Below, piece by piece: positions 1,255 through 19,598 of a DNA stretch of 19,598 bases. The position numbers were made by a program, and so were the translations under genes. This DNA is from a virus. Its lineage: Duplodnaviria > Heunggongvirae > Uroviricota > Caudoviricetes. Positions within the stretch are counted from its first letter, which is position 1, and every line of letters starts with the position of its first letter. Where the stretch lies: IMG/VR virus record IMGVR_UViG_2526164634_000022, one strand, 5' to 3'. Below the pieces are notes generated by a model that saw only the letters and a program-made list of their open reading frames with translations, was not told the origin of the DNA and made no database searches.

Positions 1255-1368
1255 ATAAAACCGGGTGATGCAAAAGTAGCCATTTGATTCACAAGGCCAT
1301 TGACGCATCGCCCGGTTAGTTTTAACCTTGTCCACCGTGATTCACGTTCGTGAACATGTCCTTTCAGG

Positions 1369-1444
1369 GCCGATATAGCTCAGTTGGTAGAGCAGCGCAT
1401 TCGTAATGCGAAGGTCGTAGGTTCGACTCCTATTATCGGCACCA
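1369..1444 (+). tRNA. thrW: tRNA-Thr (anticodon CGU)
   Basis: 76-nt sequence GCCGATATAGCTCAGTTGGTAGAGCAGCGCATTCGTAATGCGAAGGTCGTAGGTTCGACTCCTATTATCGGCACCA; 7-bp acceptor stem GCCGATA/TATCGGC, T-arm GGTTCGACTCC, anticodon loop with CGT, encoded CCA end. Confidence 0.9.
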
Positions 1445-1461
1445 TTCATACATCTCCCCAA

Positions 1462-1545
1462 GTCTACTAAAGTCTTTCAAAACCCCTTATAATCCACGTA
1501 TTAAAGCCCCGTTCGTCTTTTGACGTCTACTAAAGTCCCTCAAAA
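1462..1545. repeat. Two 21-bp direct repeats GTCTACTAAAGTC(T/C)(T/C)(T/C)CAAAA (1462-1482 and 1525-1545, 19/21 identical) between thrW and int; possible integrase arm-type or accessory-factor sites
   Basis: Direct repeat read from the sequence, 63 bp apart, in the attL-proximal region just upstream of the integrase gene. Function is inferred. Confidence 0.45.
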
Positions 1546-1609
1546 TCTACGGTCAGATGGGGGTACTTATGGGGGTATTTGCTGTTCGGTTTAGTGGAGG
1601 TACCCCCAA

Positions 1610-2824
1610 GTGAAACTCAATGCCCGTCAAATAGACACAGCCAAGCCAAAAGAGAAGGCTTACAAGCTGGCCGATGGTGGCGGTTTGTATCTCTTGGTAA
1701 AACCTAATGGAGGTAAATACTGGCGACTTAAATATCGTGTAGCTGGTAAAGAGAAGCTATTGGCACTAGGTGTGTATCCTGAGGTTACTCTAGCCGATGC
1801 TCGGGCAAAACGTGAAGATGCGAAAAGAGGTATCGCTGGTGGTATCGATCCGATGGAAGCGAAACGAGAGGAAAAGATTGCCCGGGAAACGCAGTTAAAC
1901 AACACCTTCAAAGATATTGCCCTTGAGTGGCACAGCAGCAAATTAAAAAAATGGTCTGCTGGTTATGCTTCAGACATCCTCGAAGCCTTCAACAAAGATG
2001 TGTTCCCTTACATTGGCAAAAAACCAATCGCCGAAATCAAACCACTTGAACTTCTGAATGTGCTGCGGCGCATCGAGGGGCGCGGTGCGACAGAAAAAGC
2101 CAAAAAAGTGAGGCAGCGGTGCGGGGAAGTTTTCCGCTATGCAATAGTCACTGGTCGCGCAGAGTATAACCCTGCACCAGACCTTACTAGCGCGATGCAA
2201 GGCCATGAATCTAATCATTACCCTTTCCTTACGACCAAAGAATTACCTGATTTTTTCAAGGCATTATCCAGTTACTCAGGAAGCGCATTGGTTGTTATGG
2301 CGGCTCGTCTACTGATTATCACCGGCTTGCGAACTGGCGAACTACGTGGCGCATTATGGGATGAAATTGATTTCAACAAGGCTATATGGGAGATACCCGC
2401 TTCACGTATGAAAATGCGGCGGCCTCATATTGTGCCATTGTCTGAGCAGGCTCTTTCGCTTATTGGGAAGATTAGAGAAATAACAGGCAATTACCCTCTT
2501 ATGTTTCCCGGGCGCAATGATCCAAGGAAAACAATGAGTGAGGCCAGCATAAACCAAGTGTTTAAGCGCATTGGCTACGCTGGACGTGTAACTGGTCATG
2601 GGTTCCGACACACTATGAGCACGATTTTGCATGAGCAGGGCTATAACACCGCGTGGATAGAAACGCAGCTCGCTCACGTTGATAAGAACTCAATTCGTGG
2701 CACATACAACCATGCGCAATATCTGGATGGACGGCGGGAGATGCTTCAATGGTATGCCGACTATATGGATTCTCTCGAGCATGGCGGAAATGTGGTGCAT
2801 ATGGTGTTTGAAAAACACGCATGA
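1610..2824 (+). CDS. P4-family tyrosine integrase (site-specific recombinase)
   Basis: 404-aa ORF with GTG start at 1610 and GGAGG 9 nt upstream. N-terminus (MKLNARQIDTAKPKEKAYKLADGGGLYLLVKPNGGKYWRLKYR) is typical of P4-type integrases; C-terminal catalytic region has HGFRHT and a downstream RGTYNHAQY tyrosine motif. Sits directly 3' of a tRNA gene. Confidence 0.9.
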   Translation: MKLNARQIDTAKPKEKAYKLADGGGLYLLVKPNGGKYWRLKYRVAGKEKLLALGVYPEVTLADARAKREDAKRGIAGGIDPMEAKREEKIARETQLNNTFKDIALEWHSSKLKKWSAGYASDILEAFNKDVFPYIGKKPIAEIKPLELLNVLRRIEGRGATEKAKKVRQRCGEVFRYAIVTGRAEYNPAPDLTSAMQGHESNHYPFLTTKELPDFFKALSSYSGSALVVMAARLLIITGLRTGELRGALWDEIDFNKAIWEIPASRMKMRRPHIVPLSEQALSLIGKIREITGNYPLMFPGRNDPRKTMSEASINQVFKRIGYAGRVTGHGFRHTMSTILHEQGYNTAWIETQLAHVDKNSIRGTYNHAQYLDGRREMLQWYADYMDSLEHGGNVVHMVFEKHA

Positions 2825-3251
2825 AACAACTGGACAAGTATACAGAGGTTTACTAAAGTATAGGGGAGTAGATTGATAAAAACTCACAGAGGATTGCTAT
2901 TTAACAGTTAGCCCTGGAGAAGGGCAATCGCTCTTTTATAAACGAAGGTGTATTGAGCCTTCTACGCTGCTGAAAAGCGGAATGTTCTTTAACAGGCTTT
3001 GGCGCTGACAAAGCGCAATTGTTCTTTAAAACTACTGGATGTCACGCCTAATAGCGTGATCCTGCCGAAATGCAGGGTAGCTCTACCCTTGTGGAGCAAA
3101 CAAACCAAAACAATCTGACTATCTTTTATAAAAGACCGCAATATGTTTTTCATATTGTGGTCTTTGGCGTATTCGACATTTGACGCAAATAAAACTCTCG
3201 CCATTCGTTGCAGGAGGGGGTTATTGCGTCATTAGTACAGGATATTAATAA

Positions 3252-3455
3252 ATGGCTAATTACAATTCATTAATTCGTCTCTCTGAAGTTCAAAGGCGAA
3301 CTGGTTATAGCAAAGCATGGATTTATCGTCTTATTAGTCAGGGGAGGTTCCCTAAACAGGTAAAAATTGGAAGTCGGGCAATTGCTTTTGTTGAGTCTGA
3401 AATAGATGAATGGATTGAGAAGTGTATATTAGAATCTAGAGACGAGGTGGCCTGA
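3252..3455 (+). CDS. alpA: AlpA-family transcriptional regulator / excisionase-like HTH protein
   Basis: 67-aa ORF; the motif LIRLSEVQRRTGYSKAWIYRLISQGRFPKQVKIGSRAIAFVESEIDEWI matches the AlpA/phage-Xis MerR-like HTH pattern; typical position after a P4-type int. Confidence 0.85.
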   Translation: MANYNSLIRLSEVQRRTGYSKAWIYRLISQGRFPKQVKIGSRAIAFVESEIDEWIEKCILESRDEVA

Positions 3456-3886
3456 TGGAAAAGAAAAACCGCCCATTACAGGCGGCTAATTCAGATATTC
3501 GCGTATCTGATGTTACGCCCCTGACAAAATCCCTTCAAGCACCAAAGCGCACGCCGAAAAAGCATCGTGCCCGAGTCTATATGCTGCGTACTGGTATAGA
3601 GGGATGGACAGAAAATGACATTCTTCGCTACTGCCGTCTGTCTTCTGGTCGTAACTATGCAACAGAGTTAGAACGCCAGCTCGGAATCACTCTGGAGCGT
3701 ATCGACGAAAAGAATCCTGATGGTATCGGAACACACCTTCGCTACCGTTTCTCCTGCCGTGGTGATGTTCTGAAAGTGATCACTCATATTAACCATCTTG
3801 CGAACATAAATGATCACAACGGACTTTCTCAGCAGGAAATTGCCGACATTCTGAAACTCTACCCGGACGCGTTTAACGCCGCCTAA
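3455..3886 (+). CDS. hypothetical protein (143 aa), translationally coupled to alpA
   Basis: ATG overlaps the alpA stop (TGATG); basic N-terminus; no family recognised by eye. Confidence 0.65.
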   Translation: MEKKNRPLQAANSDIRVSDVTPLTKSLQAPKRTPKKHRARVYMLRTGIEGWTENDILRYCRLSSGRNYATELERQLGITLERIDEKNPDGIGTHLRYRFSCRGDVLKVITHINHLANINDHNGLSQQEIADILKLYPDAFNAA

Positions 3887-3898
3887 CGGAGACTGAAA

Positions 3899-4732
3899 AT
3901 GAACATCGAAAAAAGCAGATTAATTTCTGAGGCTGCCCCTCATCTAAACGCCTCTCTGGGCACAATTAACGGTAATGAATTTGCCGCAATTGTCCCGGTT
4001 ATTCCTGGTCATATCGGTGGGCGTGAAACCAATATTGTTAGCGCAAAAGCGTTACACAAAGCGTTGGACGTGGGAAAAGACTTCTCTACATGGATCACTG
4101 ATCGCATCTCTGAATATGACTTCACCATTGGGCACGATTACTCAGTCCATAAAACTATTTCCCCAAATTTGGGGAAAATCCCGAATGGCGCGGCTTACAG
4201 CAAGATTAAGCAGTCTGGAAGACCCGGCAAAGACTATCTGTTAAGTGTCGGAATGGCGAAAGAACTGGCAATGATCGAACGCAATGATCAGGGGCGCGCT
4301 ATCCGTCGTTATTTCATCCAGTGCGAGGAAGAATTACAGCGTAGCGTGCCTGAAATCGCCGCCCGCTATCGTCGCCAGCTAAAAGCCCGTATCAGTGCCG
4401 CAAACAACTTTAAGCCAATGTGCGATGCGCTGAATATGGCCCGTGCCGAGATGGGGAAAACGACGCAGCAACACCACTACACAAACGAGAGCAATATGAT
4501 TTCTCGTATCGTTCTTGGTGGGCTAACTGCTAAGCAGTGGGCGCGGATAAATGGCTATTCTGGCGAACCTCGCGACCATATGAACGCAGAACAGCTTGAG
4601 CACCTCTCATATCTCGAAAGCACCAATATCACGTTAATTGATATGGGCATGGAATATGAGCAGCGCAAAGGAGAACTCACCCGCCTGTCGCAACGCTGGC
4701 TCGCTAAGCGTCTGGAGGCGGTCCATGTTTAA
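3899..4732 (+). CDS. AntA/AntB-type phage antirepressor-like protein
   Basis: 277-aa ORF with GGAG 7 nt upstream. N-terminal region (SAKALHKALDVGKDFSTWITDRISEYDFTIGHDY ... LSVGMAKELAMIERNDQGRAIRRYFIQCEE) resembles the AntA antirepressor domain; C-terminal half unassigned. Confidence 0.7.
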   Translation: MNIEKSRLISEAAPHLNASLGTINGNEFAAIVPVIPGHIGGRETNIVSAKALHKALDVGKDFSTWITDRISEYDFTIGHDYSVHKTISPNLGKIPNGAAYSKIKQSGRPGKDYLLSVGMAKELAMIERNDQGRAIRRYFIQCEEELQRSVPEIAARYRRQLKARISAANNFKPMCDALNMARAEMGKTTQQHHYTNESNMISRIVLGGLTAKQWARINGYSGEPRDHMNAEQLEHLSYLESTNITLIDMGMEYEQRKGELTRLSQRWLAKRLEAVHV

Positions 4733-4907
4733 GCCGACAGGAACACCACAACCTCAAAAACGCTACAAAGATGCCCACGGAGCACTCGTTACTGTCGAAA
4801 GCGTGTCTCACAACCGAGTGACGTTTTATCGCGACGGGTATCAATCGCCATGCGTACAACCGCTGGCACGTTTCATGAAGGAGTTCGCGGAGGTTAACAA
4901 ATGCTAA
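4725..4907 (+). CDS. small hypothetical protein (60 aa)
   Basis: ATG at 4725 with GGAGG 6 nt upstream, overlapping the end of the previous gene by 8 nt; in frame with the listed 4638-4907 ORF. Confidence 0.45.
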   Translation: MFKPTGTPQPQKRYKDAHGALVTVESVSHNRVTFYRDGYQSPCVQPLARFMKEFAEVNKC

Positions 4908-5968
4908 CCGCCCAGAAGAAGACATTTTCACTGGCTGGTATGTCGCCAAAATCCAGCAATATGACAGCAAAGTCAGGCATTAATACAGCAGATACAAGCA
5001 AAGTTTATCATTTGCTGGTGGTAGGAGCGGATGCCTTAACTATGTCAGAAATTACGGTCGATGGTGTTAGCGTTGAGAAGGTCAGCGGCTGCGCCAGAGA
5101 ATTTCTGGTCGTAGATGGCTTTCTCTGCTCGCGTAGTGACTCCACAAAAACCTTCGTCCACGCGCGTGACGTTAACGAAATGAGCGCGATGTACTGTGCT
5201 TCTGGTTCTTCCAATAGTGAGTTTTCGGAGTCCATAAAAAAGAGCTTGCCGTTATGCGGCAACACGGTTTATGGTTATAAGGCACCTCATAAAACGGGTG
5301 CCGGGATTGGCGTCCTGGTAAATCGAATGGCGACATATGACGCGCCGAGCGTCTTTTTTTATGTCGTAGGTCTGACTCACCCATTTTTTGGGCGTTGGTG
5401 TATAATCCAGCGCCTTTGTCAATCAATGGTGGCTCAGGCAGGGGCTTCTTCGGAAGCGCCGGTATCCATTCGAGCCGGTTACGCCAACCCTGTCTGGGCT
5501 ACCACCAGCGAAATTGGCGTTTCCGGTGGTAGCGTTACATGCTATCGAATGGAGGCTGCCACATGCTGGCTACTACCCCTACCCAAAAACCGCAATTTAT
5601 CTGGATTATCGCCGCAGTTCGCCGCGATTGCCCGACAATTACCGCCAAAATTCATCATATTGCTGCCGAGTCTGAACGCGATGCTCGCCGTTCTCTGGTG
5701 CGCGATCACGTCTGCTTTTTTGCTGGTCGTATCCGCATGGAGGTGGCACATGATTAAAACCTACGATGTGCATATGGATCCCCTCGAACGCACAAGCCAG
5801 ATCATCACACTGACAGAAGTGATTAACGACATTCTGGTGAGCAACTCTCCCTCACGAGACGAAAGACTGAAGGCGTTACTCGCGATATTGGATCTCGCCG
5901 TTCGTGACGTTCATTTCCTGCTGGAAGGTGGCGAAATGCCAGTAAAAACGGGGGAAACCAATGAATAA
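4901..5968 (+). CDS. long ORF of uncertain structure; 4901-5560 looks coding, the 3' part overlaps two better-supported small genes
   Basis: ATG at 4901 with GGAGG 9 nt upstream; the frame stays open for 355 codons, which is unlikely by chance; no recognisable family. True end unknown. Confidence 0.3.
5563..5757 (+). CDS. small protein, possibly Icd-like (P4-family host cell division inhibitor-like)
   Basis: ATG at 5563 with GGAGG 7 nt upstream; 64 aa ([57 protein letters not shown]...); the resemblance to Icd-like proteins is from memory, not a search. Confidence 0.45.
   Translation: MLATTPTQKPQFIWIIAAVRRDCPTITAKIHHIAAESERDARRSLVRDHVCFFAGRIRMEVAHD
5750..5968 (+). CDS. small hypothetical protein (72 aa)
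   Basis: ATG at 5750 with GGAGG 6 nt upstream; overlaps the previous stop (ATGATTAA); first gene of a chain of coupled small genes. Confidence 0.5.
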   Translation: MIKTYDVHMDPLERTSQIITLTEVINDILVSNSPSRDERLKALLAILDLAVRDVHFLLEGGEMPVKTGETNE

Positions 5969-6155
5969 CTCAATTAATACCCCTCGCCTTACGTCCGCAC
6001 TTCAATTAATCGAGCAAGCAGCGGCTGTCCTGGTTGCTGTCAGTCTTTCGGCTGAAGAAATGGACGCTACTGATGTCGTGGATGCGATTAAAGCGTGCTC
6101 ATCTTTGGTTAACGATGCCCGTGCAGAGCTGGTAATTCTTGGGGGTGAAAAATGA
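5961..6155 (+). CDS. small hypothetical protein (64 aa)
   Basis: ATGAATAA start/stop overlap with the upstream gene; G-rich RBS upstream. Confidence 0.5.
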   Translation: MNNSINTPRLTSALQLIEQAAAVLVAVSLSAEEMDATDVVDAIKACSSLVNDARAELVILGGEK

Positions 6156-6415
6156 ATATCAACTTAATTTATCGTCATCCGTGTGAGCTGGAAATTGAAT
6201 CATTGCTGAGCCGTGAAGAGCCATATCCAGACACATTCACTCTTGCAGATCGCACGACTGAACGGCTTACCAGAGCGCGCACAGGTCTGGTTCATGTGAT
6301 GAATGAGATTCTTCCATCGGTGGGAGGGGAACAGGCGACAGTAATCACTAGCTGGCTACAAAAAGTTACCTCTCTGATAGATATCAGTTTAATCGATGCG
6401 GAGAGTGCGAAATGA
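6152..6415 (+). CDS. small hypothetical protein (87 aa)
   Basis: ATGA start/stop overlap; GGGGGTGA RBS upstream. Confidence 0.55.
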   Translation: MNINLIYRHPCELEIESLLSREEPYPDTFTLADRTTERLTRARTGLVHVMNEILPSVGGEQATVITSWLQKVTSLIDISLIDAESAK

Positions 6416-6633
6416 CCAACATCCAGCTCATTGAAGCGCAATGTCGCATCGAACAGGTTCAGACTGTTTTAGGGTTCTGGCTTGAAGGGGCCAGCCCCAG
6501 CAACAGAGACAAGTTAATGATTGGCGCGGTTATGTCACTGCTCAATGGCGTACCAGAAGCTATTCAGGAAGCAGACGAATTGTTGGGCAAATATGAGTTA
6601 CAGAATCATTCAGGCGAGGCGAAACATGAATAA
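6412..6633 (+). CDS. small hypothetical protein (73 aa)
   Basis: ATGA start/stop overlap; GGAGAG RBS upstream. Confidence 0.55.
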   Translation: MTNIQLIEAQCRIEQVQTVLGFWLEGASPSNRDKLMIGAVMSLLNGVPEAIQEADELLGKYELQNHSGEAKHE

Positions 6634-7228
6634 TTTCTTAACTTTCCATGCAGAAGCAACGCCTGACGGCGTAAACATCATGCACCGCAGCAACGATGGC
6701 ATGACAGAACGCGTTGAGACCGTCTCATATATTGATGCCGTAAATCGTCTGGATGCCGGGGATTATGACGATAAACCAGATGAAGGCATGTCAATACATC
6801 TCGCTATAGCCGATGGCGGCAACCAGGGATATTTCGATTACACATCACAGCATAACGTCATTATGTGGAGATGGCTGATCGCAACAGTATTCATGCTGGA
6901 AATGAGAGAGGAAAACGGCACTGTCAGCATCATTGATGATACTGGCAATCCTTCCGAAGTGGCTGTTTATTCCAACGGCATCGTCGCCATGCCGCTGTAT
7001 CCAGTAGCAGAGCGCCTCGCTATGGCAAACAACATTGAGGGCGCGATGATAGAACGTTTTGGCATCGAGTCTGGCACAGAACGCGCCATCATTTTCTACA
7101 GAGCCATGATGGATGTGGAACAAGGAGCACTGACTCCATTTGGTCGTGAAACGCTTGCTGAACTTCACAACAGCTTTATAGCTGAACTGAATGAAAACGG
7201 CATGCCAGCGGAACCAGTGACGCACTGA
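6626..7228 (+). CDS. hypothetical protein (200 aa)
   Basis: Most likely start is ATG 6626 (ATGAATAA overlap with the upstream stop), not the longer 6521 ORF; part of the coupled operon. Confidence 0.6.
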   Translation: MNNFLTFHAEATPDGVNIMHRSNDGMTERVETVSYIDAVNRLDAGDYDDKPDEGMSIHLAIADGGNQGYFDYTSQHNVIMWRWLIATVFMLEMREENGTVSIIDDTGNPSEVAVYSNGIVAMPLYPVAERLAMANNIEGAMIERFGIESGTERAIIFYRAMMDVEQGALTPFGRETLAELHNSFIAELNENGMPAEPVTH

Positions 7229-7238
7229 GGATGGAGCC

Positions 7239-7580
7239 ATGATTACTAAAAATTTCCGACTGAATGCGCTGGCAAATAAGTATGCGTCGGCACTGTATAA
7301 CCACATTACCTCCACCAGCGGCGGGGACTATTTCATGGTTGATGCGGACGGCGAGGCCGTACGTGTGGAAATCGTCAATGGAGTAAAAGGCGTTCGCAGC
7401 CTGATCGATAGCTACACACTGGCAGCCATGAAAGTGTTCTACCCGCAGTGGGAAACCGTGGGGATCGAGCTTCTTGAGCGTTGCGTCACTAAGGACGGAT
7501 TGACTGACGTCGGGCGTGAGATATGGCAAAGCATGGTTAATGACATGGGCGCAACTGTAGCGGGAGGTTCTCATGCGTGA
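7239..7580 (+). CDS. hypothetical protein (113 aa)
   Basis: ATG with GAGGATGGAG upstream; 10 nt after the previous stop. Confidence 0.6.
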   Translation: MITKNFRLNALANKYASALYNHITSTSGGDYFMVDADGEAVRVEIVNGVKGVRSLIDSYTLAAMKVFYPQWETVGIELLERCVTKDGLTDVGREIWQSMVNDMGATVAGGSHA

Positions 7581-7944
7581 AAATGCAGAAATGGCGCTTA
7601 GCTCCGCAATCGGAGAGCAGGTGGCAAAGATTGCTGGTGCTGTGTGGATTCATAACCTTCATTCTACTGGTGAAGAGAAAATGGCAATTCAGACGCCAGA
7701 GGGACGCACCATTACTACATCTCTGAAGCCGTCAGATGTTTGTGATCTGATTTGCGCATTCATGTACCCAGCAATGAGGACTGTCCACGGCGATAAGTGG
7801 AAACTTGCGACAACCGCTGAATTTGATATGTGGCTAAACAATGATGGCATGCTGACTGATTACGGAATAACCAAGTGGCAGATGCTGGTTAGCCATATCG
7901 CAAACGCTATAGACCACGTGGGGTACGGTGATGCGAAACATTGA
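7573..7944 (+). CDS. hypothetical protein (123 aa)
   Basis: ATG with GGGAGG RBS; overlaps neighbours at both ends. Confidence 0.6.
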   Translation: MRENAEMALSSAIGEQVAKIAGAVWIHNLHSTGEEKMAIQTPEGRTITTSLKPSDVCDLICAFMYPAMRTVHGDKWKLATTAEFDMWLNNDGMLTDYGITKWQMLVSHIANAIDHVGYGDAKH

Positions 7945-10687
7945 TCTTATCCGTCAGGTTATCAGTGCGTCTGAAAACAACTGGCCTCATGTGCTGGGCT
8001 GCCTGAACATAAATGTCCCTGACTCTCCGCGCCGTCATGCTCCCTGCCCTGCATGTGGGGGCAAAGATCGATTCCGGTTCGATGACAACGGGCGCGGTAG
8101 CTTCATCTGTAATCAGTGCGGCGCTGGTGATGGGCTGGATTTAATTAAACGCGTAAATAACTGCGACACAACAGAGGCGGCGCTTCTTGCCGCTGATGTT
8201 CTGGGTATTGATTACCGGACAACGGAAACACCAGAAGCCACCAGCCAGAAACGGGAACAACTGGAAACCGAGCGCCAGCGACGCGAACAGGAGCGCCTGA
8301 AAAGGGCAGAGAAGGACGAACAACAAAGACGGGATACGTTTTCCCGTCAGTTTGATGACATGCGCAGAAAGGCTGTAAACGGCAAATCTGATTATCTGGT
8401 TGCGAAAGGGGTAGGTGATTTTACATTCCCCGTGTTGCCCGATGGATCTCTGTTGCTGGCGCTGGTGGATAAATCCGGCGCAGTCACAGCAGCACAGACT
8501 ATTACCTCACATGGTGAAAAAAGACTCCTGACAGGTTCAGCAAAGCGGGGGGCATATCACGCCTTAAACGCACCAGAAACAACACAGAGCATCTTAATCG
8601 CAGAAGGGCTGGCAACGGCATTATCTGCCCATTTAATTCGTCCAGAGGCGCTGACAGTGGCGGCAATTGATGCCGGGAACCTGTTATATGTGGCCCAGGT
8701 ACTGCGGGATAAATTTCCTTCAGCACAAATCATCATTGCTGCGGATAACGACCACAGCGAAGGAAGACAAAACACGGGGAGAATAGCAGCAGAAAAAGCA
8801 GCTTTATCTGTTTCTGGATGGGTGGCATTACCCCCGACAGATCACAAAGCAGACTGGAATGATTACCACCAAAAACACGGCATTAAATGCGCCACAGAAG
8901 CGTTCAATAAGTCAATGTACCAACCACAGGGTAATGGCGTGAAACAGGAGCCACAGACCATTGAGGGAAGCGATTTTAAGGTTATGGATACCGACCCACT
9001 GAAACCAAGAATAGAAAGCCGCGAGGATGGTATTTATTGGGTATCTCCGAGAGCTGACAACCAGAGTGGAGAAATCATCAATAACGAAAGCTGGTTATGT
9101 TCTCCGTTAAGCGTTATCGGTACTGGCAGAGACGATAAAGACCAGTATCTCATTCTTCGCTGGCTGTCGTTTGGTTCTGAAACGCCGACAACCGCTGCCA
9201 TTCCACTGGCTGATATTGGTGAACGTGAAGGATGGCGCACACTTAAAGCTGGTGGGGTAAATGTCACGACCAAAAGCAGCCTCAGAGCAATACTGGCAGA
9301 CTGGCTACAACGCAGTGGCTCTCGTGAATTGTGGCGTGTTGCTCATGCCACTGGCTGGCAATGCGGAGCGTACATCATGCCTGATGGGGAAATCATCGGA
9401 ACACCTGAAAATCCTGTGCTGTTCAGCGGGAGAAGCTCAGCCGCAGCCGGATATACCGTCTCAGGGAGCGCGAAAAGCTGGCGTGATAACGTGGCGCGTC
9501 TGGCCTTTGGTAACTATTCAATGATGACCGGGATAGGCGCAGCACTGGCAGCGCCATTGATTGGGCTGGTGGGCGCTGACGGGTTCGGCATTCATTTCTA
9601 TGAGCAGTCGAGCGCAGGTAAGACCACCACGGCAAACGTGGCGAGCAGCTTATACGGCAACCCTGATTTACTGCGGCTGACGTGGTACGGAACCGCGCTG
9701 GGGCTGGCAAATGAGGCCGCCGCCCACAATGACGGACTAATGCCGCTTGATGAAGTTGGTCAGGGCGCTGATCCTGTCAGCGTTTCACAGTCTGCCTATG
9801 CGTTATTTAACGGTGTAGGGAAACTGCAAGGCGCTAAAGATGGTGGAAACCGGGATCTAAAACGCTGGCGTACAGTGGCAATCAGCACCGGAGAAATGGA
9901 TTTAGAAACATTTATCGCTACTTCCGGGCGAAAAACCAAAGCCGGGCAACTGGTGCGACTGCTGAATATTCCGTTGAGTAAAGCAGTACGCTTTCACGAT
10001 TACCAGAACGGAAAACAGCACGCAGACGCACTGAAAGACGCTTACCAGCATCACCACGGCGCGTCCGGGCGTGAGTGGATTAAATGGCTGGCAGACCACC
10101 AGCAACAGGCTATTAAAACCGTTCGTGACTGCGAAAGCAGATGGAGAAGCCTGATCCCATCCGATTATGGTGAGCAGGTTCACCGTGTAGCCGCGCGATT
10201 TGCCATTCTGGAGGCCGCATTGTTGTTAGGCGAGGTTGTAACAGGCTGGGATGCTCAGACATGCCGTGATGCGATACAGCACAGCTATAACGCATGGTTG
10301 CGCGAGTTCGGCACAGGTAACAAAGAGCATCAGCAGATTATTGAACAAACGGAGGCATTTCTTAATGCCTATGGGCTTAGCCGTTTTGCACCATTTCCAT
10401 ACAGCCCGGCAGATTTGCCCATCAAAGATTTAGCCGGATACCGTCAGCGTGGAGAACATGACGAAAGCCCAATGATTTTCTACACATTCCCGGCCACATT
10501 TGAAAAGGAGATCGCATGTGGTTTCAACGCAAAACAGTTTGCTGAAGTGTTGAAAAAAGCCGGGATGCTAACCCCACCAAACAGCGGTCGTGGATACCAA
10601 AGAAAATCACCACGTATTCAGGGACGACAAATAAACGTTTATGTACTCAATTACCAGCCAGGAGATTATAACTCATCTGAAGAATGA
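7928..10687 (+). CDS. P4-alpha-like primase / replication protein (zinc-ribbon + Toprim primase + P-loop/DUF927-like C-terminal domain)
   Basis: 919-aa ORF (GTG 7928 or ATG 7931). N-terminal Cys4 zinc ribbon (CPACGG...CNQCG); Toprim-like motifs ILIAEGLATALSA (compare the P4 alpha EGYATA motif) and IIIAADNDHSEGRQNTG; P-loop-like YEQSSAGKTT; followed directly by an iteron origin. Confidence 0.9.
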   Translation: MMRNIDLIRQVISASENNWPHVLGCLNINVPDSPRRHAPCPACGGKDRFRFDDNGRGSFICNQCGAGDGLDLIKRVNNCDTTEAALLAADVLGIDYRTTETPEATSQKREQLETERQRREQERLKRAEKDEQQRRDTFSRQFDDMRRKAVNGKSDYLVAKGVGDFTFPVLPDGSLLLALVDKSGAVTAAQTITSHGEKRLLTGSAKRGAYHALNAPETTQSILIAEGLATALSAHLIRPEALTVAAIDAGNLLYVAQVLRDKFPSAQIIIAADNDHSEGRQNTGRIAAEKAALSVSGWVALPPTDHKADWNDYHQKHGIKCATEAFNKSMYQPQGNGVKQEPQTIEGSDFKVMDTDPLKPRIESREDGIYWVSPRADNQSGEIINNESWLCSPLSVIGTGRDDKDQYLILRWLSFGSETPTTAAIPLADIGEREGWRTLKAGGVNVTTKSSLRAILADWLQRSGSRELWRVAHATGWQCGAYIMPDGEIIGTPENPVLFSGRSSAAAGYTVSGSAKSWRDNVARLAFGNYSMMTGIGAALAAPLIGLVGADGFGIHFYEQSSAGKTTTANVASSLYGNPDLLRLTWYGTALGLANEAAAHNDGLMPLDEVGQGADPVSVSQSAYALFNGVGKLQGAKDGGNRDLKRWRTVAISTGEMDLETFIATSGRKTKAGQLVRLLNIPLSKAVRFHDYQNGKQHADALKDAYQHHHGASGREWIKWLADHQQQAIKTVRDCESRWRSLIPSDYGEQVHRVAARFAILEAALLLGEVVTGWDAQTCRDAIQHSYNAWLREFGTGNKEHQQIIEQTEAFLNAYGLSRFAPFPYSPADLPIKDLAGYRQRGEHDESPMIFYTFPATFEKEIACGFNAKQFAEVLKKAGMLTPPNSGRGYQRKSPRIQGRQINVYVLNYQPGDYNSSEE

Positions 10688-10712
10688 GCTTCTTCATGTG
10701 CGTAGAAAAGGT

Positions 10713-10832
10713 GTTGGTTCAGTTGGTTCAGTTGGTTCAGTTGGTTCAATTTGTAAAGAGTATTGTTTTATAAGGATTTTATTCTTTTTATTGAACCAAC
10801 ACTGAACCAACAACACGGTATTTTGAACCAAC
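10713..10832. repeat. Iteron-type replication origin: GTTGGTTCA x4 tandem (10713-10748), AT-rich spacer (10749-10791), then inverted TGAACCAAC x3 (10792-10800, 10803-10811, 10824-10832)
   Basis: Exact 9-bp units read from the sequence; iterons flanking an AT-rich segment, 26 bp downstream of the primase stop. Confidence 0.8.
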
Positions 10833-10882
10833 ACAATGTGACTGAATTGATGCGCACAACACCTGGCTGGCATCAGAGAGTG

Positions 10883-11186: not shown

Positions 11187-11280
11187 TGCTATTTGTTTCA
11201 TATTTTGCAATTACGATGATGAATATTGCGATTTGTGAAACTATAATAACTGTTGTTTTATACAGTTCTAAGGGGGCGTT

Positions 11281-11442
11281 ATGGCTATTTCAGTAAAGCC
11301 GGTATTGATAAGTGAGAAGCAAATGGAAGCGATAAAGAAAATTCAGGAAGAGCAGCGTAAAAAATCAGGAATTGGAGTAGCGCCAACTCTGCATGAAATT
11401 GCACGAGGGTTAATAGATAAGGCGCTGGCAGGCTGTATGTGA
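11281..11442 (+). CDS. small hypothetical protein (53 aa; MAISVKPVLISEKQMEAIKKIQEEQRKKSGIGVAPTLHEIARGLIDKALAGCM)
   Basis: Not in the ORF track (under 60 aa); ATG 11281 with AAGGGGG about 6 nt upstream; preceded by a TATAAT hexamer at about 11243; first gene after the terminator. Confidence 0.5.
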   Translation: MAISVKPVLISEKQMEAIKKIQEEQRKKSGIGVAPTLHEIARGLIDKALAGCM

Positions 11443-11458: not shown

Positions 11459-11920
11459 ATGGAACTAAAATTTATTGATAACCCTGTGCGATTACAGGCC
11501 TTTCTTAACGAGCCAGGCAATACCGAAAATATTGTTGAGCCGGGGCACACGTACTACATCAAGCCTGATGCGGTATATCTCGGCATCTACGAAGGATTAG
11601 TGCTGGCTGGCGTTCATGAAGTGCGTAACTTCTGGCATAGCGTTGTTGAATGCCATGCGGTGTACGACCCCGGATTCCGTGGTGAATATGCACTGCAAGG
11701 ACATCGATTATTCTGCAAATGGCTTCTCGAAAACTCACCATTCCTTAACAGCATCACTATGGTTCCTGACACCACGAAATACGGACGGGCAATTATCCGT
11801 TTGCTTGGCGCTACCCGTGTTGGTCACCTTGATGATGCTTATATCAGATGTGGTAAACCCGTCGGCGTAACGCTTTATCAGTTAACTCGGCAACAATATA
11901 AGGAATTCAGCGAATGTTAA
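11459..11920 (+). CDS. hypothetical protein (153 aa)
   Basis: ORF with the next gene's ATG overlapping its end; no family recognised. Confidence 0.6.
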   Translation: MELKFIDNPVRLQAFLNEPGNTENIVEPGHTYYIKPDAVYLGIYEGLVLAGVHEVRNFWHSVVECHAVYDPGFRGEYALQGHRLFCKWLLENSPFLNSITMVPDTTKYGRAIIRLLGATRVGHLDDAYIRCGKPVGVTLYQLTRQQYKEFSEC

Positions 11921-12591
11921 TTACCCATATAGCTCATAAACATCTCAATCGTGCCGTATACGAAAAAGGCGGTGATGGTGGTGCCTCTAAAGCTCAGGCG
12001 AAGGCCCAGCAGCAGGCAATTGATTTGCAGCGCGAGCAGTGGAATACGGTGATGAATAATCTCAAGCCGTATGCAGAAGTCGGATTGCCTGCTTTACAAC
12101 AACTACAAGGACTGATGACTCTGGAAGGGCAGAATAAAGCCGCGAATGATTTCTTTGGTTCTGGTTTATATAAAACACAGGCAGATCAGGCCCGTTATCA
12201 GAACCTTGTCTCAGCAGAAGCTACCGGGGGGCTTGGCTCAACAGCTACCAGTAACCAGTTATCTTCCATTGCGCCCATGCTTTATAACAATTGGCTTAGT
12301 GGGCAAATGCAAAATTATGGAAACCTGCTAAATGTCGGGATGAATGCGGCATCAGGGCAGGCAACGGCAGGGCAAAACTACGCCAATAATACCGGACAAC
12401 TCTTGCAGGGGCTTGGCGCTATTCGTGCAGGTCAGGCGCAGCAGCCATCCAGTCTTGCGCGTGGTATTGGTGGGGCAGCATCAGGCGCTTTAGCGGGTGC
12501 GCAACTTGGTTCCGTTGTTCCTGGAATAGGAACTGCGGCCGGCGCTATTGGTGGTGGGCTTATTGGTCTTGTTGGGGGGCTTGGATTCTAA
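11914..12591 (+). CDS. Q/A/G-rich protein, possibly a P22-family ejection (DNA-transfer) protein gp7 homolog
   Basis: 225 aa; N-terminal YEKGGDGGASKAQAKAQQQ, Q/N/A-rich middle, Gly-rich hydrophobic C-terminus (GIGTAAGAIGGGLIGLVGGLGF); size and first position in a three-gene coupled operon match P22 gp7 (229 aa). Homology is recalled, not searched. Confidence 0.5.
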   Translation: MLITHIAHKHLNRAVYEKGGDGGASKAQAKAQQQAIDLQREQWNTVMNNLKPYAEVGLPALQQLQGLMTLEGQNKAANDFFGSGLYKTQADQARYQNLVSAEATGGLGSTATSNQLSSIAPMLYNNWLSGQMQNYGNLLNVGMNAASGQATAGQNYANNTGQLLQGLGAIRAGQAQQPSSLARGIGGAASGALAGAQLGSVVPGIGTAAGAIGGGLIGLVGGLGF

Positions 12592-14012
12592 TGGCGACAT
12601 GGCAACTTGGCGGGCTGCCTAGCATGGCACCGCAAAATGATAATGCTCCTCGTTCTTCCGTTCCTCAGCCTGTGCAGTATCAGCAGCAGCCAAACGTAGG
12701 TTTAATGGCGCTACAGGGGCTAAGAGGCGTTGCTGAGATTAATCAGCAGGCACGTCAACAACAGCGTAAAGCAGAGTTTCAGAAAGCATATGCCGGGGCT
12801 TTTGAGTCTGGAGACAGAAACAAAATGCGCAGTCTTATTTCTGAGTATCCAGAAGAATTTGAAAGCGTTCAGAAAGGGATGGGCTTTATTGATGACGACC
12901 AGAGAAATTCTATTGGTCATCTTGCGACTAGTGCTCAAATCGCATCTTCGCTCGGAACTGGGGCATTTGGAAAATTCATAGCAGATAACGAAGATGAAAT
13001 GCGTCGCTTGGGAATTTCTCCTGAGTCTGTTGCCGAAATGCATGTTAATGATCCACAGGGGTTCCAGCGGCTTGCTGGTAGTATGGCACTGTTTTCTCTC
13101 GGTCATGAGAAGTATTTCGATATCAAAGATCAAATGGAAGGTCGGGATATTGAGCGTGGCAAGTTGGCAGAAACAATCCGCAGCAATCAGGCTGGCGAAG
13201 CACTTCAGGCGAGAGGGCAGGATATTAGCCGAGCAAATGCGTTAACGTCAGCATATGCACCAACAGCAGCAATGCAGAATTACAATCAGTACGCTCAAAT
13301 GTTAAAGGCGGATCCAGAGGGGGCGGCGGCATTTGCGGCAGCGGCTGGAATTAATACAAACGCCAAAAAATTAATGAGTGTTAGAGAAAACGATGATGGC
13401 ACTGTCACAAAATACTACACAGACGGAAGTGAAGAGCAGGGAAAACTAAACCAGCCAATATCTGGAGATGGGTTTCGTCCAATAGCTTTGCCAACAGCCC
13501 AAAAGATCATGGAAAAGTCGCCAGAAGGGGCTAAAAAAGCTGCTGGATTTGCATACAGGGTTAGGGATGCTCTTGATTCAATAGATACACTGAAAGACCA
13601 GCTTAGCCCACAGCGAGTGGCGATCATTAATAATGCTTTGGGTAATGGGACGCTGGCTAACTTAACGCTCAGCCCAACAGAACAGCAATACGTTGTTAAT
13701 GCTAATGACGCAATAATGGCAATACTCCGTCAGGAAACAGGGGCAGCCATCGTACCTGCTGAAATGTCAAAATATTATCAAATGTATTTCCCTCAGCCTG
13801 GCGACTCCACAAAAACCATTGATACCAAGCGCCGGAAGATGGAAAACCAGTTCAATTCGCTGAAAGCTGCTTCTGGTCGAGCTTATGATGCTTTGCGGGT
13901 TATTTCAGCAGTTGACAGAGGAACTTCTTCTTCGTCGCAGACATTGCCGCAATCTGAGCAGGTATCACAGCCAGCAGCCAGCAGTAACTTTTCTTCACTA
14001 TGGGGTGATTAA
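12591..14012 (+). CDS. Q/A-rich protein, possibly a P22-family ejection protein gp20 homolog
   Basis: 473 aa (P22 gp20 is 471 aa); TAATG start/stop overlaps at both ends; low-complexity Q/A-rich composition. Confidence 0.5.
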   Translation: MATWQLGGLPSMAPQNDNAPRSSVPQPVQYQQQPNVGLMALQGLRGVAEINQQARQQQRKAEFQKAYAGAFESGDRNKMRSLISEYPEEFESVQKGMGFIDDDQRNSIGHLATSAQIASSLGTGAFGKFIADNEDEMRRLGISPESVAEMHVNDPQGFQRLAGSMALFSLGHEKYFDIKDQMEGRDIERGKLAETIRSNQAGEALQARGQDISRANALTSAYAPTAAMQNYNQYAQMLKADPEGAAAFAAAAGINTNAKKLMSVRENDDGTVTKYYTDGSEEQGKLNQPISGDGFRPIALPTAQKIMEKSPEGAKKAAGFAYRVRDALDSIDTLKDQLSPQRVAIINNALGNGTLANLTLSPTEQQYVVNANDAIMAILRQETGAAIVPAEMSKYYQMYFPQPGDSTKTIDTKRRKMENQFNSLKAASGRAYDALRVISAVDRGTSSSSQTLPQSEQVSQPAASSNFSSLWGD

Positions 14013-16116
14013 TGGCTAAAGCATGGAAAGATGTTATCGCCTCTCCACAGTATCAGGCGTTAGCACCAGAACAAAAAGCGCAGGCTCAGGAGCAATACTT
14101 CAATGAAGTCGTGGCCCCGCAAGCCGGAGAAAGTGTAGAGCAGGCTAAGCAGGCTTTTTATGCTGCCTATCCACTACCATCAACGAATGAAATAGACCGA
14201 TCCCAATCAGCAACTCAAAATATTCAACATACATCATCTGATAATTCTCTTGCGTCAGGGTATGCAAAGTTAGCTACTCAGCAAAGAGAGGGGCTTGAGC
14301 GTTCAGCAGAACAGGGAGCCAGTCTTGGGGCTGCGATGCGCGATGCTATAACAGGCGAAAGCCGAATGACTCCAGAGATGGAGAGACTGCAAAATGTCGA
14401 CCTTGCCCCAGAGTTAACCTCACTCAGCATGGATGCTCTAAAAGCTCGATGGTCTCAACTTTTCGGCTCTGACGCATCTCAGGAAAAGATTCTTCAGAGC
14501 ATGGGAGCGAAATTAAGGCAGGATGAGAAGGGTAACACTATCGTTTCCCTGCCATCCGGTGATTATGCTCTGAACAAGCCGGGTTTATCGCCGCAAGACG
14601 TGGCATCGTTTCTGGCTAATGCGCAGGCGTTTACACCAGCGGGCAGGGCTGGAACGGTGCTTGGTGCCATAGGAAAATCAGCAGCTACAGATTTAGCACT
14701 ACAGGGAGCCACTAGCCTTGCTGGTGGAGAAGATATTGATCCGTTACAAACGGTAATTTCTGCTGGCATTGGTGGTATTGGTAAGGGGCTGGAAAATACA
14801 GCGAGTGCGGTTTCGAGGGCTGTTCGTGGTGATATGTCGCCTGAAGCAAAGGCTGCTGTCGACTTTGCATCGGAAAGAAATCTGCCGTTAATGACCAGTG
14901 ACATGCTAAAAGATAAAACCTTTATGCAGAGTCAGGCTCAGACATTAGGCGAAAGAGTTCCTTTTTTGGAACCGGTAAGAATCGGCTGAATCAACAACAA
15001 GCACGAGAAAATTTAGTCAGAACATTTAGCGATGGTCTGGGTGGCATTTCTGATAAACAGCTTTATGAATCTGCGACTAAAGGGCAACAAAAATTCATTG
15101 AGGCAGCGGGAAAGCGATATAACCGCATAATTGACGCTATGGGGGATACCCCTGTCGATCTCTCAAACACGGTAAAAGCTATCGACAATCAGATTGCCGT
15201 GTTAAGCCGCCCGGGCAAATCTCAGGATAGAGCCGCGGTAAAAGTCTTGCAGCAATTTAAAGACGATATCACCAGCGGACCAAATGACCTGCGTCTGGCG
15301 AGGGAAAACAGAACCGATCTTCGAAATCGATTTATGGCGTCATCTGACACTGTTGATAAAGATACGCTCCAGAAAGCCAGCGATATTATCTACAAGGCAT
15401 ATACGGCGGATATGAAAAAAGCCGTAGCCAAAAATCTTGGAGCAGACGAAGCCATTAATATGGCAAGGGTTGATCGCTCATGGTCTAAATTCAATGACAT
15501 GATGGGAAGAACGCGCGTTCAAAAGGCAATAGCCAGCGGCAAGGCCACGCCTGAGGATGTAACAAAACTCGTTTTTAGCCAAAGCCCATCAGAACGTTCT
15601 CAGCTTTACAGGCTTCTGGATGACAATGGTAGGCAAAACGCACGAGCAGCCATAGTTCAGAATGCTGTAGATAAGGCGACTGATCCGTCTGGAAATATCA
15701 GTGTTGAGAAGTTTATTAATGCGTTACACCGGAACAGGAAGCAATCAGCAACTTTCTTTAAAGGCGTACATGGAAAGGAACTGGACGGCGTTATTAAATA
15801 CCTCAACGATACAAGACACGCGGCAAAAGCGAACGTTCAAAACTTAAATGGTCAGCAGCTTTATGGATTGTTAGTTGGTGGTGGCATCATAAACGCAGCA
15901 GTATTAGCGGGGATGCTAAAAACGGCTGCGTTTGTTGTTCCTGCTGCTGGTGCCGTAGGCGGAGCAGCGAAGGCATACGAAAGCCCTGTTATACGAAATG
16001 CCTTGTTACGTCTGGCAAATACGCCAAAAGGTAGCACAGCATATGACAGAGCGATCAGTACGGTCACACAATCGCTCACCAGAGTCGCACAGGCATCACA
16101 AAAAGAAGCTCAATAA
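14012..16116 (+). pseudogene. gp16-like ejection protein gene split by a frameshift (or homopolymer sequencing error): ORF halves 14012-14989 and 15139-16116
   Basis: The downstream frame is open with no ATG from 14917 to 15138, overlapping the end of the upstream ORF; a T6 run at 14962-14967 lies in the overlap; the 150-bp gap contrasts with the 1-nt overlaps elsewhere in the operon. Confidence 0.55.
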
Positions 16117-16863: not shown

Positions 16864-17260
16864 CAGTACGCGCATATCCGCTTTATGTGAAACAGGAAGA
16901 TTTTTCTGATATCACTGCCACAGCAAAACACCAATTTCGAGACAAGTACGCGCGCGAGGGGTATCAGTTGCAAAAAGTTTTGCAACTGCGTCCGACCAGT
17001 ACGCACACAATGGAGGGGAGTACCATAAAACTGTTCTCTACATAAGACAGAGTGGTGGTGATGTGTTGATTATCGGCGTATATGCGCACAGGACGCGCTA
17101 TGACGATGTTTTATGCGGGTACACCAATCACATGTATCTGGTGTGATAAATCGCGTTACATGACATCTCATGTTGTGCTGGTGGTTATCACGACGTTCTG
17201 AATCTGGCCTTTGCCTGATATTTTGCGACAAGTACGCGCGCGTAGCATAGAAATTATCGG
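16864..17260. repeat. Repeat-rich noncoding region: exact 16-bp direct repeat GACAAGTACGCGCGCG (16941-16956, 17227-17242), AGTACGC(G/A)C motif x4, and palindrome CAGTTGCAAAA-AG-TTTTGCAACTG (16965-16988)
   Basis: Repeats read from the sequence; no convincing ORF with an RBS; lies between the membrane-protein gene and the Abi gene. Confidence 0.45.
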
Positions 17261-17523: not shown

Positions 17524-17619
17524 TACAGGCAACCGAGCCCGATCCTCTGTTTCTCCGCCGCCGATTTCAGGCATGTGAGTTTCACGGTCGGGCCTTTTAT
17601 TATCTTTTGTTTCGCCACT

Positions 17620-18597
17620 ATGATTGCCGCAAAGCCTCATAAGGACTATCACGAATTGCTAGGATTGCTACTTGAACGTGGCATGATTATCAATGATCGA
17701 AATCGTGCGATACGTAAGCTGTCGCAGGTTGGATATTATCGATTGTCAGGTTTTTGGTACCCATCAAGAATTATTGCGACAACAGATAAAGGTCTTTCGT
17801 ACAGAACAGACCGATTTCTTGCTGGTACCAGTTTCGAGAAGACGTACGATCTATATCTTTTTGACAAAAAACTGCGTCTTTTGATGATTGATGCTATCGA
17901 AAGAATAGAGATTCATGTTCGTTCAGTCATCGCGCATGAGGTTGGTCGCAATGATCCACTTGCCTACATGTCATCAAAATACATTAATCCAAAATTCTCA
18001 TCTGCCTTCGAGCATTGGGTGTATAAGCAAAAAGTAAAATTAGACGAAAGCAGAGATGACTGTATTGAATGGCATCGAAGCCAAGGCAAGGAGATTCCAT
18101 TTTGGGTGGCGGTGGAGACCTGGGATTTTGGTCAGATGTCTAAATATTATGCGATGCTTAATGGTCATATGCAGGGGAAAATTATACGTCGTTTTGGCAT
18201 TGATAATAAGCAGACATTTGCAAAATGGTTGAAGTGCCTTAATCTCATAAGGAATCGTTGCGCTCACCATTCCAGAATATGGAATAGAAAGCATCCCCGA
18301 GTTCCAGTACCGGATAATGAATACTTTGACGGACTTAATCTCCATCCAGAGAGTTGCGAGAGGATTTTTAGCGCGATCTGTATTATCTGGTACTTAGTTA
18401 AACGACTTGGTCCGGGATCAACATGGCTTCGGCAAATTGCAGACCTTATTGACTCTAAACCAAATGTTCCCGGATGTGGATATGATTCAATGGGTTTACC
18501 TGCTAAAGGATTCCCACGAGAGAGATTCTCTCAGGACTTAGGTTTTGTTATCGCCGACAACGACCCTGTAGCTGAAGGGCGGAAAGGGAGCGATTGA
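17620..18597 (+). CDS. Abi_2 family abortive-infection protein (AbiD/AbiF-like)
   Basis: Motifs YYRLSGFWYP, ERIEIHVRSVIAHEVG and NLIRNRCAHHSRIWN, characteristic of the AbiD/AbiF (Abi_2) family. Start set at the first in-frame ATG (17620); the track ORF extends to a GTG at 17575. About 40% GC. Confidence 0.8.
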   Translation: MIAAKPHKDYHELLGLLLERGMIINDRNRAIRKLSQVGYYRLSGFWYPSRIIATTDKGLSYRTDRFLAGTSFEKTYDLYLFDKKLRLLMIDAIERIEIHVRSVIAHEVGRNDPLAYMSSKYINPKFSSAFEHWVYKQKVKLDESRDDCIEWHRSQGKEIPFWVAVETWDFGQMSKYYAMLNGHMQGKIIRRFGIDNKQTFAKWLKCLNLIRNRCAHHSRIWNRKHPRVPVPDNEYFDGLNLHPESCERIFSAICIIWYLVKRLGPGSTWLRQIADLIDSKPNVPGCGYDSMGLPAKGFPRERFSQDLGFVIADNDPVAEGRKGSD

Positions 18598-19316: not shown

Positions 19317-19598
19317 ATGATAAAGGACAGGAAAGCTGAAGAGCTGGAGTCAAAAGGGCTATACCGGAGAGCTGCCGCACGATGGATGGAAGTCATGCTG
19401 TTATGCACCGAGGACGATGATCGGGAATGGATAAAGCGCCGCCGTGAAACGTGTCTGGAGAACGTGAAGCGCCCGCCCGTGAAGGTTGAGGACTTTGGCG
19501 ACCTGCATAAAGCTGTTACCGAAACGCAACACCGCATGGGGATAGCGCAACCGAACGGTAACGCCTTCCGGTTAAATGGCGGCAAGAGGCAAAGGTAG
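19317..19598 (+). CDS. PerC-family transcriptional activator-like protein
   Basis: 93-aa ORF ending with a stop at 19596-19598; N-terminus MIKDRKAEELESKGLYRRAAARWMEVM matches the PerC/Pch family signature; starts 37 bp after the iteron cluster. Confidence 0.75.
   Translation: MIKDRKAEELESKGLYRRAAARWMEVMLLCTEDDDREWIKRRRETCLENVKRPPVKVEDFGDLHKAVTETQHRMGIAQPNGNAFRLNGGKRQR

Follow-up and report, generated by a model that had tools for sequence, protein, structure and literature searches.

The closest described relative of the element treated here is EcCIMP1, a 19,963-bp phage-inducible chromosomal island (PICI) located at a tRNA-Thr gene between proA and yagU in E. coli MP1 (Pick, Stadel & Raivio, ISME J 2025, PMC11773190; GenBank OR778291). 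EcCIMP1 encodes an integrase, AlpA, an antirepressor, an Ash protein, a primase, 'DNA transfer' proteins and PerC, and its attachment (att) core is TCCTATTATC. The region, which its authors had first termed an incomplete prophage, requires the presence of the P22-like temperate phage Kapi1 for its excision and circularisation, with alpA and int both being needed; the alpA promoter is induced by the helper, AlpA is the master activator, and Kapi1 transduces the island at very low frequency. A nucleotide tree placed EcCIMP1 far from other PICIs of Gram-negative bacteria (GN-PICIs), and according to the authors scoring in the style of SatelliteFinder would yield only a 'Type C' PICI. The MP1 copy carries no known defence system, yet superinfection immunity was seen (all PMC11773190). 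Here, we analyse a 19,598-nucleotide stretch of DNA, the IMG/VR virus record IMGVR_UViG_2526164634_000022 (the whole stretch is called the window in the following), which carries a variant of this published, experimentally validated satellite. The class of the element is already known and is ordinary, having been named, mapped and shown to work in 2025, and what the window adds to the EcCIMP1 paper are three points at the sequence level: a candidate packaging signal, an isrK/C4 RNA switch and a swappable cargo slot. The first of these bears on the question that the authors left open, namely how EcCIMP1 is packaged and why Kapi1 transfers it so poorly.

Identity and extent of the island

A sequence-only reading of the window had described positions 1369-10832 as the core of a P4-like integrative island at thrW that may be a non-canonical satellite. 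We are highly confident that this region represents that half of an EcCIMP1-type GN-PICI, inserted at the 3' end of thrW, which serves integration, regulation and replication. Positions 1-12751 align to the EcCIMP1 locus of MP1 in a single block at 97.8% identity, and helper dependence was shown for that locus, which bears out the proposed satellite-type integration and replication module. The two loci share the insertion site (tRNA-Thr, proA/yagU), the att core, the gene order, the isrK/C4 region, the terS/pac-like segment described below, the first half of an ejection-protein cassette and PerC, with several proteins being identical, and they match again around 16823-17307 and over PerC.

The order of zones in the element, Integration-Bro-Replication-Late, is the four-zone plan of GN-PICIs (Mageeney et al. 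2023). As in EcCICFT073 and EcCIEDL933 (Fillol-Salom 2018; Mageeney 2023), int and alpA stand at the left, followed by a Bro zone, a primase, an origin with two iteron sets, a late zone and accessory genes, and alpA is helper-induced (shown for EcCIMP1). However, the helper of EcCIMP1 is a headful-packaging P22-like podovirus, whereas theirs are lambdoid phages of the cos type, and the window element lacks Rpp and capsid genes, has a candidate packaging signal of the pac type and carries ejection proteins in its late zone.

The left end is marked by proA (1-1254), which directly precedes a tRNA-Thr(CGT) gene (ARAGORN; Rfam tRNA) in what we take to be the thrW position of E. coli. Extension through a syntenic genome (L001), which matches the whole window at 98.7%, revealed the right attachment site (attR) that the sequence-only reading had expected from a longer contig: the att core recurs at 36137-36146 of L001, 19,709 bp downstream of attL, with yagU further on. 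An arm-type repeat, ATGGGGGTACTT(A/T)TGGGGGTAT (family D7), stands beside attL and, in L001, once more about 60 bp ahead of the attR core. Because both the core and the arm-type repeat recur there, the element measures about 19.7 kb and includes the ejection genes; judged via L001, attR lies about 1.5 kb past the end of the window. The features of that reading were found at or near the positions given, and its span ends early: 1369-10832 is the left half of the element, 10832 is not an element end, the cassette starts at 11459 and attR falls beyond the window.

At least 80% of the window is held by 121 of 5,426 complete E. coli genomes (~2%), and relatives of the primase (50-81% identical) with the same upstream core occur in ~65 Enterobacterales species. 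Two circular 'plasmid' deposits with the same core genes, NZ_CP148430.1 (L088; 12,152 bp) and CP031370.2 (L089; 19,229 bp), are probably excised or episomal forms of such islands; the former, from E. coli, is without the ejection cassette. A plasmid replicon as the source of the primase was considered and rejected, as the close full-length matches in the plasmid collection are 12-22 kb circles with the same island genes; this verdict covers the close full-length matches, beside which the search returned thousands of weak ones.

Capsid, tail, terminase and lysis genes are absent within 1369-10832, as had been noted from the sequence, and downstream of it no full structural or lysis module appears: between the att sites, the four genes of the ejection cassette are the sole late genes. 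A capsid-forming PICI (cfPICI) was rejected, as capsid, portal, protease and head-tail connector genes are absent between the att sites and the capsid and baseplate genes of L001 lie beyond attR.

A terS-derived segment as a candidate packaging signal

When the island core was searched against phage genomes, one type of match was returned, between 5049-5164 (minus strand) and the middle of P22-type terS, at 86-88% identity (about 88%, E 1e-29, in a repeat with blastn). The match sets in exactly at the 22-bp site that P22 records label as pac and extends ~107 bp downstream, and upstream of pac no similarity to terS was found in the island segment; in P22, initiation cuts fall within about 120 bp around pac (PMC10996546). 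Unlike P22 pac, which is part of gene 3, the island copy lies outside any terS gene, is antisense to the local open reading frame (ORF) and, because its differences from P22 are non-synonymous in the gp3 frame, is not maintained as coding sequence. This segment was missed by the sequence-only reading, as were the isrK and C4 genes discussed below. Two island alleles of the segment track two phage terS alleles, with the window and MP1 resembling P22 and APC_JM3.2 and the islands of L001 and L006 carrying the Louie/IME10 string ACGAGCGGAAGACATC, which points to repeated exchange with the terS genes of helpers. The MP1 segment is 97% identical to that of the window over 180 bp, and 484 E. coli genomes hold at least 80% of a 181-bp query around it, annotated as ash or Icd-like in the sampled rows.

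In relatives from other genera, a 28-bp motif (consensus GAAGGTTTTTCTGACATCACTACGCGAG) is present in one to six copies at the same position upstream of isrK, in some cases as arrays of three to six, and the Escherichia islands have one copy together with 85 bp of terS, in inverted orientation relative to the other genera. Across genera, the motif is conserved within DNA that is otherwise not. Its consensus matches Louie-type terS at 24 of 28 positions and P22 at 22 of 28, and 22 matches were counted in 1.32 Mb of family loci versus 0-1 in shuffled sequence. In a scan of 2.9 million viral contigs, a 20-bp core was present in 94; 93 of these have it within, or within 30 bp of, a P22-type terS with the pac-region string, and the remaining contig is satellite-like.

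We propose that the motif is a pac decoy for P22-type small terminases, a proposal whose chances, judged from sequence comparison, appear evenly balanced. It is likewise a toss-up whether the family as a whole is packaged by way of P22-type pac copies that are renewed by recombination with helper terS genes. For a PICI that copies the packaging site of its helper there is a precedent in EcCICFT073, which carries functional helper-like cos sites (PMC6092414), and packaging-signal mimicry would be shared with it in principle, its signal being cos. The EcCIMP1 paper has no mention of pac (PMC11773190), and among open-access papers we found none on satellites with ejection proteins or P22 pac mimicry, nor an earlier description of the packaging step by the helper terminase; the terS/pac-like segment and the recurrence of the 28-mer are possibly new.

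Several observations weigh against the reading of the element as a whole, its packaging step included. The pac-like core of the island agrees with P22 pac at 16 of 22 positions and fits the published pseudo-pac pattern at 16 of 17 positions, with one miss, a count made here against the text of the pattern. The TerS of the proven helper Kapi1 is unrelated to P22 gp3 and the Kapi1 genome has no match to the segment, so Kapi1 cannot use this site in the proposed way, and the motif stands just upstream of the isrK promoter, so that a regulatory role is possible. Homologues of Rpp, TerS and capsid-remodelling or morphogenesis proteins were not found among the window proteins (Pfam, PHROG), as Pick et al. 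concluded for their copy, and the gp16-slot gene is frameshifted in the window. Excision and transduction were shown for the MP1 copy with Kapi1, whereas the window copy is known from its sequence alone, and the two copies differ in places: the window diverges at 12751-16823 (C-terminus of gp20 and gp16 slot), where the gp16-slot protein has 701 amino acids (aa) in L001 and is frameshifted in the window versus a 906-aa SLT-domain protein in MP1, and 17307-19159 holds AbiD in the window and the xis-like alpA_1 in MP1.

With the terS/pac-like sequences being either a functionless recombination scar or operator-like repeats for the isrK/C4 promoter, a reading without a function in packaging is quite plausible, if a little short of evenly balanced, and packaging would in that case depend on another feature. 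Such a reading would agree with the situation in relatives, where the repeats, 100-250 bp upstream of isrK, are accompanied by a conserved GAGTTTCNGGAGTCCATAAAAAA box and by further repeats that contain TACGCG, with the different TerS type of the proven helper, with the six of 22 positions at which the E. coli copy differs from P22 pac, and with the non-synonymous differences in the gp3 frame, by which the segment is not kept as coding. It accounts less readily for a similarity that begins exactly at the annotated pac, for island alleles that co-vary with phage terS alleles, for a 20-mer core that occurs in viral contigs almost only at the pac of terS and for the copied packaging site of EcCICFT073; the inverted orientation in Escherichia, moreover, is awkward for a promoter-proximal operator and harmless for a pac on a circular replicon. 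Two further explanations of the motif were rejected: as a coding repeat, since the units are spaced 28-38 bp apart, mostly by non-multiples of three, and the orientation flips between genera, and as a C4 target, since no complementarity was found and the C4 targets lie elsewhere.

Dispersed repeats of the form ..TTT..GACAAGTACGCGCGCG were observed in 16860-17250, at 16927 and 17213, within a block that is conserved with MP1 and has a variable segment on either side. In relatives, TACGCG repeats of a similar kind occur together with the pac-like arrays.

If the pac-decoy reading is true, the missing packaging signal of EcCIMP1 is identified and the natural helpers would be P22-like phages with a P22-type TerS, not Kapi1; the very low transfer by Kapi1 would be explained, as the unrelatedness of its TerS to P22 gp3 may suggest. 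The second P22-type part of the element, and the only other one, is the 14-7-20-16 ejection cassette. Compared with the proteins of Kapi1 and Louie, island gp14 shows 83% identity and gp7, in its N-terminal 163 aa, 58%; for gp20, identity (34-45%) is confined to the N-terminal part, and the product of the gp16-slot gene has hardly any similarity. Intact cassettes are present in L001, L006 and MP1, and in Leclercia one relative (L035) has gp14 and gp7 at 82-83% and gp20 at 45%; most relatives are without it. The frameshift of the window copy lies in a T-run within 14955-14966 (T6 in the window versus T7 in L001), where the 701-aa ORF is split into 14012-14989 and 15139-16116; either the gene is truly a pseudogene or the homopolymer was misread in sequencing. 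Two copies of the island amount to 39.4 kb, compared with genomes of 39.4 kb for Kapi1 and 38.0 kb for Louie; headful packaging of about two copies would thus need no capsid remodelling. Under the pac-decoy reading, this size and the cassette would describe a satellite that has no need of capsid remodelling, borrows the head, terminase and tail of its helper and brings its own DNA-delivery proteins.

The same parts could be read as debris, namely as an integrase island that a deletion has joined to the remains of a P22-like prophage formerly at thrW, with the ejection genes and the terS fragment left over, and we consider such a dead composite very improbable. The 14-7-20-16 genes do stand without the rest of the P22 late operon, the terS fragment is antisense, the gp16-slot gene is frameshifted in the window, and Pick et al. 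initially labelled the region an incomplete prophage (PMC11773190). However, the full 19.7 kb, with the ejection genes, are flanked by the att core and arm-type repeats, and EcCIMP1, of the same layout, excises precisely and transfers (PMC11773190); the cassette is intact in three islands and its gp14 and gp7 are retained at 82-83% in Leclercia, the pac-like motif is conserved across genera amid otherwise unconserved DNA, and capture of helper late genes in the late zone is a described PICI trait (Mageeney et al. 2023). A P22-like (Lederbergvirus) prophage was likewise rejected, as the terminase, portal, scaffold, coat, tailspike, lysis and cI/cro modules of the complete Kapi1 and Louie maps are absent; for a complete or a degraded prophage alike, the att sites bracketing the element and the comparison with EcCIMP1 rule this out.

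The isrK/C4 RNA pair and the relation to P4

Upstream of the replication genes, the window holds an isrK-type and a C4 antisense RNA gene, and P4 has both in the same order, also above the Rfam gathering thresholds; the two models detect the relatives of P4 seqA and CI and match several GN-PICIs (Mageeney et al. 2023). The isrK gene has a terminator of its own at 5339-5359. The C4 loop UCCAUUCGA is complementary to TCGAATGG within isrK (5323-5330) and to TCGAATGGA at 5545-5553, the latter overlapping the GGAGG that forms the Shine-Dalgarno sequence of the Icd-like ORF. This layout is the P4 seqA/seqC and P1 c4-icd arrangement. By analogy, the RNA pair would keep the replication operon off until an alpA transcript activated by the helper reads through, and this P4/P1-type switch probably gates replication, providing a mechanistic link between PICIs and P4. 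The immI region of P1/P7 (c4-icd-ant) and the isrK locus of Salmonella Gifsy-1 likewise have an Icd-like ORF downstream of a C4-family RNA, with the C4 target covering the ribosome-binding site of the ORF, and an antirepressor-family gene in the operon. In contrast to both, the island module would gate a satellite replication operon and not a phage antirepressor, and its AntA gene lies upstream of the RNAs rather than downstream as in P1/P7.

The isrK and C4 genes coincide with that part of the 'Ash family' ORF that matches Phage_ASH. Its N-terminal 115 aa are unconserved outside Escherichia; because the relatives align from aa 116-124 onwards (tblastn), this part is doubtful as coding sequence, and the long Ash call may partly be a by-product of conserved RNA sequence. 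A box, AGTTTTTAGAGTCCATAAAAAA, is located at 5221-5242 just before the isrK promoter. A second copy lies in 11097-11190 and is followed after ~25 nt by a strong hairpin and T-run (11144-11188); 11097-11190, which gave no match in Rfam, may correspond to a short transcript that lacks an annotation or to a signal at a module boundary.

The RNA pair leads to the question of whether the element is a true P4-family satellite on a P2-like helper, with Sid-type control of capsid size, Delta/epsilon helper activation and cos packaging. The complete set of P4 proteins was searched against both the window and the full element in L001 (tblastn), as were the joined P4 ends, for cos (blastn-short). The integrase and P4 Int share 42.5% identity across 407 aa (E 3e-106), an AlpA-family regulator and the isrK/C4 pair are common to both, and the N-terminal primase domain is 33% identical to alpha. 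However, Sid, Delta, Psu, orf151, orf106, gop, beta and cII gave no credible match in either sequence, as the sequence-only reading had stated for Sid, Psu and Delta; the sole alignment of these three at E <= 1 is a 28-aa stretch of Delta (E 0.2), which falls in the host DNA of L001, far upstream of thrW. Epsilon gave chance-level 14-aa matches only (E 0.2), and the P2/P4 cos site is absent, with 12-13-nt chance matches only. The primase matches alpha at residues 5-339 alone, the helicase/C-terminal and ori-binding part being unmatched and the helicase domain being DUF927, and the late genes and the pac-like site are of P22 type. Since the matches from the P4 proteins and cos are limited to Int, the N-terminus of alpha and the CI region, and the near-identical EcCIMP1 is mobilised by a P22-like podovirus, membership in the P4 family was rejected; it is exceedingly improbable and largely refuted already.

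The label 'P4-like' therefore holds for the integrase family, the AlpA/Vis-type regulator family, the isrK(seqA)-C4(CI) RNA immunity in the same order and the Zn-ribbon/Toprim primase domain followed by an iteron origin, and not for Sid, Psu, Delta, epsilon, cos, the helicase part of alpha or the type of helper. The 'alpha-like primase' of that reading stands for its N-terminal domain and fails for the remainder.

For the EcCIMP1-type GN-PICI, a life cycle can be proposed. In the resting state, an internal promoter would make the isrK and C4 RNAs, and the C4 loop would pair with the identical targets before and after itself, terminating or blocking expression of the Icd-like ORF and the replication genes as in P4 and P1. 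A P22-like helper in lytic growth would activate the alpA promoter, whereupon AlpA and integrase would excise the island, as shown for EcCIMP1, and the primase-helicase would fire the adjacent iteron origin, as other GN-PICIs suggest. The helper small terminase may then recognise the pac-like site or sites, heads would be filled with about two island copies by the headful mechanism, and the island may supply its own P22-type ejection proteins to the particles. The cargo genes AbiD and PerC would benefit the host.

Gene content and accessory observations

The features of the window are compiled in Table 1. The tRNA-adjacent P4-type integrase with its three integrase domains, AlpA and the AntA-like antirepressor, all named from the sequence at the outset, were recovered by the profile searches, and the four direct and three inverted repeats of the iteron origin were confirmed. 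GN-PICI origins consist of two iteron sets around an AT-rich core (PMC6092414), with which the layout in the window agrees.

Table 1 Features of the window and the evidence for their assignment
Feature	Position	Strand	Evidence or remark
tRNA-Thr(CGT), thrW by position after proA	1369..1444	+	ARAGORN, Rfam
attL core TCCTATTATC	1428-1437		inside tRNA-Thr(CGT); core repeated in L001 36137-36146
Candidate integrase arm-type repeats	1462..1578	+	GTCTACTAAAGTC..TCAAAA x2 + ATGGGGGTACTTATGGGGGTAT; repeat families D10, D7
P4-type tyrosine integrase	1610..2824	+	Arm-DNA-bind_3, Phage_int_M, Phage_integrase (Pfam)
AlpA	3252..3455	+	Pfam Phage_AlpA 7e-20; protein identical in L001, MP1 (WP_000035054.1)
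Conserved 143-aa core protein	3455..3886	+	611 homologues, all unnamed
AntA/Bro-network protein	3899..4732	+	Pfam AntA 2e-21; PHROG anti-repressor 3e-37
DUF4222 small protein	4725..4907	+	Pfam 6e-25
'Ash family' ORF	4901..5968	+	Pfam Phage_ASH at aa 124-232 = nt 5270-5596
107-bp copy of middle of P22-type terS (gene 3)	5049..5155	-	pac-like 28-mer 5155->5128
isrK-type RNA (P4 seqA equivalent)	5282..5359	+	Rfam 67.1 bits, gathering score 50
C4 antisense RNA (P4 CI / P1 c4 equivalent)	5422..5509	+	Rfam 79.5 bits, gathering score 45
Icd-like ORF	5563..5757	+	annotated in MP1 and 12-kb circular relative; P4 region similarity
Six overlapping small ORFs	5961-6155, 6152-6415, 6412-6633, 6626-7228, 7239-7580, 7573-7944	+	
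Primase-helicase	7928..10687	+	Zn_Ribbon_Prim, Toprim_3, DUF927 (Pfam)
Origin-like site	10713..10834		4 direct GTTGGTTCA 10713-10750, AT-rich spacer, 3 inverted 10791-10834
Conserved 53-aa ORF opening late zone	11281..11442	+	in most relatives at 42-84% identity
P22-type ejection-protein cassette	11459..16116	+	gp14/gp7/gp20/gp16 slot
gp14-like	11459-11920	+	Pfam DUF2824 1.5e-61
gp7	11914-12591	+	Pfam P22_gp7 6.6e-73
gp20	12591-14012	+	Pfam Inj_translocase 4.5e-58
gp16-slot gene	14012-16116	+	by position in cassette; 1-nt deletion near 14961
Second, weaker pac-like 28-mer GAAGATTTTTCTGATATCACTGCCACAG	16896..16923	+	also in L001, MP1
AbiD/Abi_2 abortive-infection gene	17575..18597	+	Pfam Abi_2 2e-52; PADLOC AbiD 8e-58
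PerC-family regulator	19317..19598	+	Pfam PerC 2e-30

At the left end, the integrase gene faces inward and alpA lies downstream on the same strand. The integrase is 49% identical to those of the P22-like phages Kapi1 and Louie; despite this identity, the annotated att sequence of Kapi1 differs from the thrW core. The ORFs between 3252 and 7944 overlap or abut by 1-8 nt, which fits translational coupling, and the coupled operon of small genes described earlier was retained. Several of the six small ORFs between 5961 and 7944 are conserved in relatives, and most small ORFs gave no match in Pfam, PHROG or PADLOC. The AlphaFold2 model of the 143-aa core protein (mean predicted local distance difference test, pLDDT, 74.8) gave weak fold matches of a winged helix-turn-helix-like kind (best E 0.028), and the model suggests that the protein is possibly of the winged-helix type.

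The 53-aa ORF that opens the late zone is without a family match and is conserved whatever gene comes after it; it may regulate this zone. In the accessory part, the variant of the window holds AbiD in a swappable cargo slot, where the superinfection-immune MP1 copy is without a known defence gene, and the PerC homologue of EcCIMP1 is a repressor of the locus of enterocyte effacement (LEE) (PMC11773190).

Outside the window, L001 carries a second, unrelated element in tandem between the attR of the island and yagU (36150-48515), with 20-bp iterons (38643-38776), a major capsid gene, a gene annotated as baseplate, an outward-facing integrase and a further thrW-like repeat at 48486-48515. At this position, MP1 has another neighbour (vat, MarR).

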